DNA from: Candidatus Marinacidobacterium sp.
Lineage (GTDB): Bacteria; Acidobacteriota; Vicinamibacteria; Marinacidobacterales; Marinacidobacteraceae
Direction: 5' to 3'
DNA: 64,000 nucleotides
NCBI GenBank assembly: GCA_965220965.1
Contig: OZ244852.1
Location: forward strand, 704,001-768,000
Positions within the stretch are counted from its first letter, which is position 1. The number at the start of each line of letters is the position of its first letter. This document shows positions 28,113-28,962 of this stretch, piece after piece. A model generated the notes under the pieces. That model saw nothing but the letters and a program-made list of their open reading frames with translations. It was not told the DNA's origin and searched no databases. The position numbers and the translations under genes are program-made.

Positions 28113-28469
28113 ATGAGTCTTGTCGGCCGGGCTCTCGGAACCGCCGCGCCGTTCGTCCCCGCCAGAGAGATCGACGAGGTCCTCGCGGACCCGAAGGTGC
28201 TGCTCCTCGATGTGCGCACCGCACGCGAGCTGCACGAGGCGGGCACGATTCCCGGCGCGGTGCACGTTCATCTGGGTGAGCTCGCGGACCGGCTCGAGGA
28301 GCTGCCGCGCGACCGCCCGGTCCTGACCACCTGAATGGTGGGACCCCGGGCTGCGCGGGCCGCAGCCATCCTGGAACGCGCCGGGTTCGAGGTCGTCGGA
28401 TTCTCCGGCCTGGTCAAGTACACCGGTGAGCGCGAGTACCGCGCGATGGAAAACGAAGGAGGTTCGTGA
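28113..28469 (+). CDS. Rhodanese-like sulfurtransferase, predicted selenoprotein (TGA 28332-28334 = Sec74), 118 aa
   Basis: LLDVRT, TIPGAVHV, then PVLTT-[TGA]-MVGPRAARAAAILERAGFEVVGFSGL; the rhodanese fold continues past the TGA to a stop at 28467-28469 that overlaps the next ATG. Confidence 0.85.
28349..28367 (+). promoter_or_regulatory. Candidate bacterial SECIS hairpin of rhodanese 1
   Basis: GGCTGCG-CGGGC-CGCAGCC: perfect 7-bp stem, 5-nt loop starting 22 nt after the UGA, G at loop position 2. Confidence 0.65.
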
Positions 28470-28912
28470 TGGAACAACGCGGAACACGGGTCGGGCTCGT
28501 TCCGATCACCGCCATGCTCGCCGGGCTGGCGCTCGGGGCGTGCGGAACCGGGGGCGGCGAGACCGCCGGCGGCGAGAGCGCCGGCGGGAGCGCGGAGCCT
28601 GCCGAGGCGGCGCCCCGGGTGGAGGCCGCCGACATCGACGCGGCGCTCGCGAACGGAGCGCTCCTGCTCGACGTGCGCACTTCCGAGGAACTCGCGGAGC
28701 ACGGCACGATCGACGGCTTCGTCCACATCCCGATCGACGAACTGGAGGCGAGGATCGGTGAACTCCCCACGGGAGTTCCCATCCTCACTGCTTGACAGGG
28801 TGGCGGAAGAGCCGCGCGTGCCGCGGAGCTGCTCACTGCGAATGGATACGAGGTCGTGGGTTTCTGCGGTCTCCGTGACTACGAGGGCGAGAGGGTCTAT
28901 CCGGGAAGCTGA
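28469..28912 (+). CDS. Lipoprotein rhodanese-like sulfurtransferase, predicted selenoprotein (TGA 28793-28795 = Sec109), 147 aa
   Basis: SD GAAGGAGG; lipobox LALGAC; LLDVRT; PILTA-[TGA]-QGGGRAARAAELLTANGYEVVGFCGLRDYEGERVYPGS; paralog of the upstream gene on both sides of the TGA. Confidence 0.87.
28812..28826 (+). promoter_or_regulatory. Candidate bacterial SECIS hairpin of rhodanese 2
   Basis: CCGCG-CGTGC-CGCGG: 5-bp stem, loop starting 22 nt after the UGA; same geometry as the first hairpin. Confidence 0.6.
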
Positions 28913-28962
28913 CCGGACGGACTGAACCGGGACACCCGCCCCGGGCCTCGGGCCTGAGGCAC

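Follow-up and report, generated by a model that had tools for sequence, protein, structure and literature searches.

Putative SECIS hairpins within two tandem rhodanese-family selenoprotein genes of an acidobacterium

We analyzed a 64,000-nucleotide stretch of the genome of Candidatus Marinacidobacterium sp. (Acidobacteriota; Vicinamibacteria; GenBank assembly GCA_965220965.1, contig OZ244852.1, positions 704,001 to 768,000 of the forward strand), hereafter the window. Positions refer to the window unless a contig is named. The window contains two tandem genes of the rhodanese family, each with an in-frame UGA codon that presumably encodes selenocysteine (Sec, written U in peptides) and that is followed by a short hairpin, the putative selenocysteine insertion sequence (SECIS). 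The features are as follows.

28113..28469, forward strand: gene 1, predicted single-domain rhodanese selenoprotein of 118 amino acids with U74 (translation, Pfam PF00581).
28332..28334, forward strand: predicted Sec-UGA of gene 1, at the active-site Cys position, TT-U-MVGPR (read-through alignment).
28349..28367, forward strand: putative SECIS hairpin of gene 1, a 7-bp stem of GGCUGCG (28349-28355) and CGCAGCC (28361-28367) around the loop CGGGC (28356-28360).
28466..28913, forward strand: gene 2, predicted rhodanese selenoprotein of 148 amino acids with U110 (translation, Pfam PF00581).
28793..28795, forward strand: predicted Sec-UGA of gene 2, at the active-site Cys position, TA-U-QGGGR (read-through alignment).
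28812..28826, forward strand: putative SECIS hairpin of gene 2, a 5-bp stem of CCGCG (28812-28816) and CGCGG (28822-28826) around the loop CGUGC (28817-28821).

Both open reading frames (ORFs) match PF00581 only after read-through of the TGA, with 49.7 bits for gene 1 (E = 5.3e-13) and 40.0 bits for gene 2 (E = 5.6e-10); the Pfam gathering cut-off is 22.2. The genuine stop of gene 1 is the TGA at 28467-28469. Gene 2 begins at GTG 28466 or ATG 28469, thus overlapping that stop, and ends at the TGA at 28911-28913. The two genes share 57% identity, and the TGAs and hairpin cores of the tandem copies lie 461 nucleotides apart. Both UGAs occupy the position of the rhodanese catalytic Cys within the motif U-x-x-G-x-R; in 55 Cys-type rhodanese homologues, the residue aligned with U is the Cys that opens C-x-x-G-x-R. 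The coding frame 3' of the UGA is conserved in 82 homologous sequences. An AlphaFold2 model of the domain, based on an 18-sequence alignment, has strands alternating with helices, as in a complete rhodanese domain (predicted local distance difference test score, pLDDT, 94.4). In this model, Sec ends the strand 51-55, and R60-A65 lie inside the helix 58-70 (pLDDT 94). A preliminary description of the locus had the hairpins overprinted on an R-A-A-R-A-A helix; this holds in the model, in which R60-A65 belong to the helix that follows the active-site loop. At its N-terminus, gene 2 encodes a lipoprotein-like signal (ending AMLAGLALGAC; 28466-28543), and a reading of gene 1 reveals no apparent one. 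The product of gene 1 is thus probably cytoplasmic, and that of gene 2 is probably an exported lipoprotein.

As far as its genes indicate, the source organism appears to use Sec. Its genome (3.25 Mb, 71% G+C, 94% complete; G000 in the coordinates below) carries a tRNA-Sec gene, scoring 74 bits against a cut-off of 47 and called tRNA-SeC(tca) by ARAGORN, together with selB (325.8 bits), selA (492.1 bits) and selD (251.6 bits), each above its curated cut-off. The selD protein is the Cys form (C-G-G-C-A-A-K). A search of this 94%-complete genome with PF00384 found no molybdopterin enzyme or fdh gene. The two genes that the preliminary description had named for comparison, selD and fdh, thus offer no Sec-UGA in this genome.

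Direct reading bears out the hairpin coordinates and the CG(G/T)GC loops at 22 nucleotides that had been proposed in the preliminary description. The loop of either hairpin opens with the 22nd base after the A of the TGA, so that 21 nucleotides separate the UGA from the loop. In gene 1, the conserved 5-bp core consists of 28351-55 and 28361-65. Lower-stem extensions were considered in both genes and rejected. For gene 1 (GGGA/UCCU), the per-clade consensus produced by RNAalifold retained the apical stem alone, as it also did in the UN clade. For gene 2 (GGUGGCGG/CUGC..CACU), RNAalifold gave a competing fold, and the variation includes mismatches. A search of the window against Rfam gave no match that reached the gathering threshold, and 28300-28900 gave none at E<=10; neither strand was matched.

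To compare homologues, we searched 61 related genomes, both for homologues and for the hairpin pattern. Within this set, the tandem pair with a TGA in each gene is present in 26 of the 27 other genomes of the source family, and the TGA is retained in 27/27 orthologues of gene 1 and in 27/27 of gene 2. TGA-bearing homologues also occur in two more families of the same order. A scan of one genome per species, which covered the best 80 of at least 240 relatives (at least 595 stretches), added members in Luteitalea, Thermoanaerobaculia, Terriglobia, Bryobacterales, 'Versatilivoraceae' and one metagenome-assembled genome of Eremiobacterota; 79 of these 80 loci gave a row, and one (L156) gave none. 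Rows were chosen by a motif filter ([UC]xxGx[RK], with hydrophobic-hydrophobic-D-x-R upstream and no nearby stop). The pairing analysis used 82 distinct sequences of the UGA plus 57 nucleotides, mostly from Acidobacteriota, in a gapless alignment. The 15-nucleotide SECIS core is nearly identical to the letter throughout several acidobacterial classes and in one genome of Eremiobacterota. It is also kept where the tandem arrangement is absent, as in genome G045, with 7 scattered copies, and in members of other classes that have a single copy.

The 5-bp core is paired in 81/82 distinct homologues. Its individual pairs, numbered by alignment column, are as follows.

Pair 20-34: C-G in 82; broken in 0.
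Pair 21-33, third codon positions: C-G in 72, U-A in 5, U-G in 5; broken in 0.
Pair 22-32: G-C in 81; broken in 1, by an Ala-to-Ser substitution.
Pair 23-31: C-G in 82; broken in 0.
Pair 24-30, third codon positions: G-C in 77, C-G in 3, A-U in 1, U-A in 1; broken in 0.

Ten double-change cells were observed, compared with 0.8 in shuffled alignments, and 0/500 shuffles reached 10. When the register was slid by 1-3 columns, 27-82% of cells were paired, versus 95.3% in the true register. On a maximum likelihood tree that excluded the hairpin columns, the variant pair states are scattered over several places, and the seven states need 12 changes. The U-A state of pair 21-33 is common to gene 1 of the source genome and of G004, and is also present in one G052 paralogue and at loci L135 and L174. 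The A-U, U-A and C-G states of pair 24-30 each occur in different lineages. The preliminary description had suggested covariation analysis as a check and had itself noted synonymous covariation between the two genes. Both points stand: the two third-position pairs are never broken and show compensatory changes, and at columns 21 and 33, GCT...GCA makes U-A in gene 1 and GCC...GCG makes C-G in gene 2. The comparative evidence clearly points to hairpins maintained beyond chance.

Codon choice is consistent with this conclusion. In a codon alignment with 75 distinct sequences, the third-position entropies of the five A-A-R-A-A codons are 0.45, 0.10, 0.45, 0.10 and 0.24 bit, compared with about 0.6-1.9 bit at the gene's remaining invariant four-fold codons in the same sequences. 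Of the 82 homologues, 73 have CGUGC as the loop, 8 have CGGGC and 1 has GGUGC. Its Arg codon is therefore CGU in 73/82 and CGG in 8/82, with a Gly codon (GGU) in 1/82; CGC and CGA are never found. In the source genome, CGT makes up 4.3% of Arg codons, CGC 42.7% and AGA 0.7%. The U-A pair of gene 1 is built from the Ala codons GCT (3.2% of Ala codons) and GCA (1.2%). Elsewhere in confident ORFs of the source genome, just 1/11 A-A-R-A-A-[AEGVD] sites forms the hairpin, and 0/11 use CGT. Gene 2 is nearly invariant from 28796 to 28828 in 20 distinct orthologues, despite the rare codons GGT, GGA, AGA and CGT. This stretch includes the interval between UGA and hairpin (28796-28811; 15 nucleotides, CAG GGT GGC GGA AGA), in which GGT accounts for 5% of Gly codons. 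A pairing partner for the interval was sought, and none was supported.

We compared the hairpins with the consensus model of bacterial SECIS (bSECIS) elements of Zhang and Gladyshev, using the criteria summarized in PMC13188914 as implemented in this analysis. As given in that summary, the model has an apical loop of 3-9 nucleotides, an upper stem of 4-16 bp, an energy of at most -7.5 kcal/mol, and a G in the first or second loop position (or both), usually with G or U after it. Both hairpins fit: the loops have 5 nucleotides (C-G-G-G-C and C-G-U-G-C, each with G in the second position), the stems have 7 bp in gene 1 and 5 bp in gene 2, and the spacing of 21 nucleotides is accepted for both. 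Among the homologues, the loop starts at column 25 in 80/82 and at column 26 in 1, and 1 fails. The model passes 81/82 members of the clade and 4/5 other Sec-rhodaneses, but only 2/55 Cys-type rhodanese homologues.

The Sec machinery, the synonymous conservation, the compensatory changes and the agreement with the bSECIS criteria all support the original proposal that SECIS hairpins lie behind the Sec-UGAs. Very probably, each hairpin is an ordinary bacterial SECIS that lies within the coding sequence of a selenoprotein gene of the rhodanese family. By analogy with E. coli, a complex of SelB, GTP and Sec-tRNA(Sec) would bind the apical hairpin, with its C-G-U/G-G-C loop and G+C-rich stem, as the ribosome reaches the UGA, and SelB, competing with release factor 2, would deliver Sec. 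These 15-19 nucleotides would also encode R-A-A-R-A-A, with which the helix that follows the active-site loop begins. The peptide would make three of the five core pairs, and selection would fix the remaining third positions. The tandem paralogues would have inherited one SECIS. In the tree, the orthologues of gene 1 and gene 2 form sister groups, adjoining single-copy 'U-N-G-G-G' homologues. The resemblance of the two hairpins reflects the tandem paralogy of the genes (57% identity, sister clades), and the hairpins are not independent samples of a lineage rule.

Several observations weigh against this interpretation, and they deserve to be considered together. Folds of 60 nucleotides do not surpass dinucleotide shuffles in stability (z = +0.67 and +0.72). 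Taken alone, the gene 1 hairpin has an energy of -11.7 kcal/mol (z = -1.80; 11/200 shuffles as good) and the gene 2 hairpin -7.8 kcal/mol (z = -0.61; 55/200 as good), the latter barely passing the -7.5 threshold; thus, single-sequence thermodynamics cannot separate either hairpin from chance in such G+C-rich sequence. Because GCN and CGN codons are complementary, A-A-R-A-A plus the following G forces three of the five core pairs, and covariation can therefore be read at two pairs alone. The counts of changes overstate the number of independent events, since many of the sequences are close kin; we accordingly read the compensatory events as a handful, not as 10. The generic bSECIS model also fits 784/3000 sampled open-frame TGAs of the source genome (26%). 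Moreover, the UGA stop of gene 1 is itself followed by an interrupted 10-bp hairpin (28467-28504) with its loop at columns 26-28, which is a natural false positive for purely geometric SECIS rules in a G+C-rich genome. Finally, a Cys-encoding orthologue of the clade would be the cleanest control, and none was found in the protein collection or among the best 80 of at least 240 relatives.

Some of these same facts favor the view that the hairpins are a by-product of coding, in which the GCN and CGN codons of R-A-A-R-A-A pair by chance without any function of the RNA. The three forced pairs and the unexceptional fold energies are as this view would have it, and hairpins of at least 5 bp with the loop at columns 22-25 follow 2,474/21,935 open-frame TGAs of the source genome (11%; 445 have at least 7 bp), besides the 26% that pass the generic model. 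It is nonetheless very unlikely, because the two free pairs are unbroken in 82 sequences and change by compensation, third-position entropy collapses at these five codons only, the rare CGT is kept in the loop while CGC is never used, and other A-A-R-A-A sites of the genome form the hairpin in just 1 of 11 cases. Another possibility is that the UGAs are true stops of split or decaying genes, with the hairpin acting as an attenuator, a pause site or nothing at all. Public gene calls do end the orthologues at the UGA, after 70-73 amino acids, and the real stop of both genes is also UGA. However, the frame and amino acids 3' of the UGA are conserved across Acidobacteriota classes with no need of a start codon, the UGA falls exactly on the catalytic Cys position, the read-through protein is modeled as a complete rhodanese domain, and the full Sec machinery is present, all of which makes true stops extremely improbable. 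We are as little inclined to attribute the nucleotide invariance to gene conversion between the tandem copies, or to an element acting at the level of DNA or antisense RNA. The copies, 461 nucleotides apart, do share the core, and the stretch before the hairpin of gene 2 is also nearly invariant for no reason that we identified. However, the core is kept in genomes with single or dispersed copies, such as the 7 over G045, and no loss of conservation was seen in single-copy genomes. In addition, the variation preserves pairing of the sense-strand RNA, G-U included, and no Rfam family was matched on either strand.

A separate question is whether this lineage's SelB has the motif (CCGCG stem, CG(G/U)GC loop, fixed offset) as its SECIS consensus, in which case the motif would mark other selenoprotein genes. 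The preliminary description had proposed that the two hairpins define a lineage-specific consensus usable to find further selenoproteins, and had suggested folding the regions behind in-frame TGAs of other selenoprotein genes of the genome as a check. An open-frame scan of the source genome found at least five more candidate selenoprotein genes, listed here.

G000:C1:1192652-1194335 (L091/L094), reverse strand: candidate AhpC/TSA selenoprotein, GGW-U-PFC (PF00578, E = 1.6e-29).
G000:C1:1192652-1194335 (L091/L094), reverse strand: candidate OsmC-like selenoprotein adjoining the AhpC/TSA gene, ATGG-U-MLG (PF02566, E = 1.6e-11).
G000:C1:1905919-1906500 (L092), reverse strand: candidate CMD/AhpD 'peroxidase-related enzyme', ECHY-U (TIGR01926, 142 bits).
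G000:C1:1416130-1416729 (L093), forward strand: candidate CYCXC-family (seleno)protein, HAAT-U-ATC (NF041379, 96.5 bits versus a cut-off of 90).
G000:C1:1707251, reverse strand: candidate second AhpC-like gene, DWTGG-U-TRQ (sequence likeness; loop ACA, without the usual G).

The AhpC/TSA and OsmC-like candidates each have a 7-bp hairpin, with the loop at column 25 or 23. Over all five, the loops are GGC, GGGC, GUC (or GGUCU), GUC and ACA, starting at columns 22-25, and the stems are unrelated to those of the rhodanese genes. This list is incomplete: a codon-usage scan for Sec genes was too strict, in that it missed both rhodanese genes and listed mainly neighboring genes that share the frame, and the looser scan that found the other candidates still missed gene 2. 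Two sets of repeats also came to light in which the TGA context is identical within each set and the frame is open, one of four copies (LVRYWN-U-YLSMF; G000:C1:1208476-1218166, reverse strand) and one of three (LSAVLG-U-AAEIQ; C1:1344063-1345564, forward strand). They are probably mobile or duplicated genes and not selenoproteins.

In the source genome, the exact core occurs behind a TGA nowhere beyond genes 1 and 2, and a looser form (a stem of at least 5 bp with a correctly spaced CGKGC loop behind an open-frame TGA) yields 8 sites, namely the two genes and 6 frames that look noncoding. We also searched the 61 genomes with an IUPAC pattern of the UGA plus core and a reversed control, which we chose over a covariance model because the coding flanks would only have re-found rhodaneses. 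Of its 83 matches, 77 are rhodanese genes, as judged by sequence and coordinates, and the remaining 6 do not exceed the 8 matches of the reversed control. Three of these 6 are copies of a polA-like 3' end in genome G010, and the other three are sites whose reading frames are poor. The G010 locus (L185; G010:C1:462006-463074) consists of three tandem polA-like 3' ends (LLQVHDELL, then VAEVRI..H.EH and the stop), each followed by an identical G+C-rich sequence, and its match to the pattern is a chance one. No instance of the same stem-loop behind in-frame UGAs of unrelated gene families was found in the genomes searched.

In favor of a lineage consensus, all seven candidate Sec genes of the source genome have a hairpin loop at columns 22-25, and related genomes encode another Sec-rhodanese subfamily (U-AVGGRSRAAA), of which 4/4 sequences have a CG(G/U)GC(U/C) loop shifted by one codon toward the UGA. 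However, the shared C-G-N-G-C letters arise because an Arg-Ala dipeptide encodes them, and G or U at the free position is already part of the bSECIS model. Together with the confinement of the motif to the rhodanese family and the different loops and unrelated stems of the other Sec genes, this makes a consensus of the kind proposed very unlikely, and the claim of a tool for finding more selenoproteins falls. What the lineage shares is generic SECIS geometry only, which is poorly specific in the source genome.

If the hairpins are SECIS elements, the RNA signal might also have shaped the protein. In this scenario, the helix would be partly dictated by the SelB-binding hairpin, and the clade would be locked into Sec and would spread together with its SECIS. 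Every sequence with R-A-[AS]-[RG]-A-A had a TGA, and the peptide is absent from all Cys-type homologues examined. The search of the protein collection returned truncated Sec forms, distant Cys rhodaneses and one further protein, P0061, and nothing else. P0061 (134 amino acids, from a JGI metagenome) has Gly at the Sec position, one extra loop residue, and both R-A-A-R-A-A and the C-terminal motif intact; the protein could be a naturally occurring variant without Sec or an artefact of gene calling. A metagenome scan with P0061 gave 5 relatives (58-59% identical, one 29%), 4/5 of which have the TGA and the same core; the contig of P0061 was not among them. We regard a role of the RNA in shaping the peptide as a tentative idea, more doubtful than not. 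If true, it would mean that Ala replaces the usual rhodanese Ser after the active-site Arg.

The genes that flank the pair encode DUF2461, ribosomal protein L28, an M14 peptidase and an aminotransferase, none of which has an evident connection to selenium.

The value of these results is foremost practical and concerns annotation: a widespread selenoprotein pair of marine and sponge-associated Acidobacteriota (Vicinamibacteria, 'Marinacidobacterales') appears to be misannotated publicly. In a collection of 5.8 billion proteins, the orthologues are fragments of 70-73 amino acids that end at the UGA and are named at most 'rhodanese-like domain-containing protein' or 'hypothetical protein'. The locus also offers a tidy example of dual coding, in which the third positions of five consecutive codons would be frozen by RNA structure, with four different Watson-Crick pairs at a single stem position (24-30). 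It supplies no new tool for finding selenoproteins, and the understanding of bacterial Sec insertion is unchanged. A literature search found no paper on the SECIS of this clade or on rhodanese selenoproteins of Acidobacteriota.

The prototype of bacterial SECIS elements is that of E. coli fdhF and fdnG. Like bSECIS elements as summarized in PMC13188914, the hairpins described here lie within the ORF, 3' of the predicted Sec-UGA, with an upper stem of 5-7 bp and a 5-nucleotide loop that has G and then U or G at positions 2-3. Their sequence is unrelated to that of other bSECIS elements, as is usual among such elements. Unlike the elements in that summary, in which a closing N1-N2 pair is common, the loop ends (C and C) form no such pair. 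A bulged U or a lower stem has no covariation support in these hairpins. With regard to the proteins, lists of prokaryotic selenoprotein families have included rhodanese-related sulfurtransferase since the analysis of the Sargasso Sea (PMC1088965). A 2026 review describes five rhodanese-like selenoprotein forms, two of them with UxxG ('form 2' and 'form 4, rhodanese-related sulfurtransferase') (PMC13188914). We rejected membership in NF041203 (rhodanese_LYCAU), for which gene 1 scores 25.8 bits against a cut-off of 115 and gene 2 has no match; this is also a model of a rhodanese-family selenoprotein, but its Sec motif is listed as CxU in that review. The invariant R-A-A-R-A-A and the C-terminal GFCGL-DY-GE may mark a subfamily. 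Like the UxxG rhodanese selenoproteins, both products belong to PF00581 and have U-x-x-G with Sec predicted in place of the catalytic Cys, a likeness to forms 2 and 4 that is one of description only. Sec rhodaneses with UxxG are thus already known, and the two genes are a further example of them.

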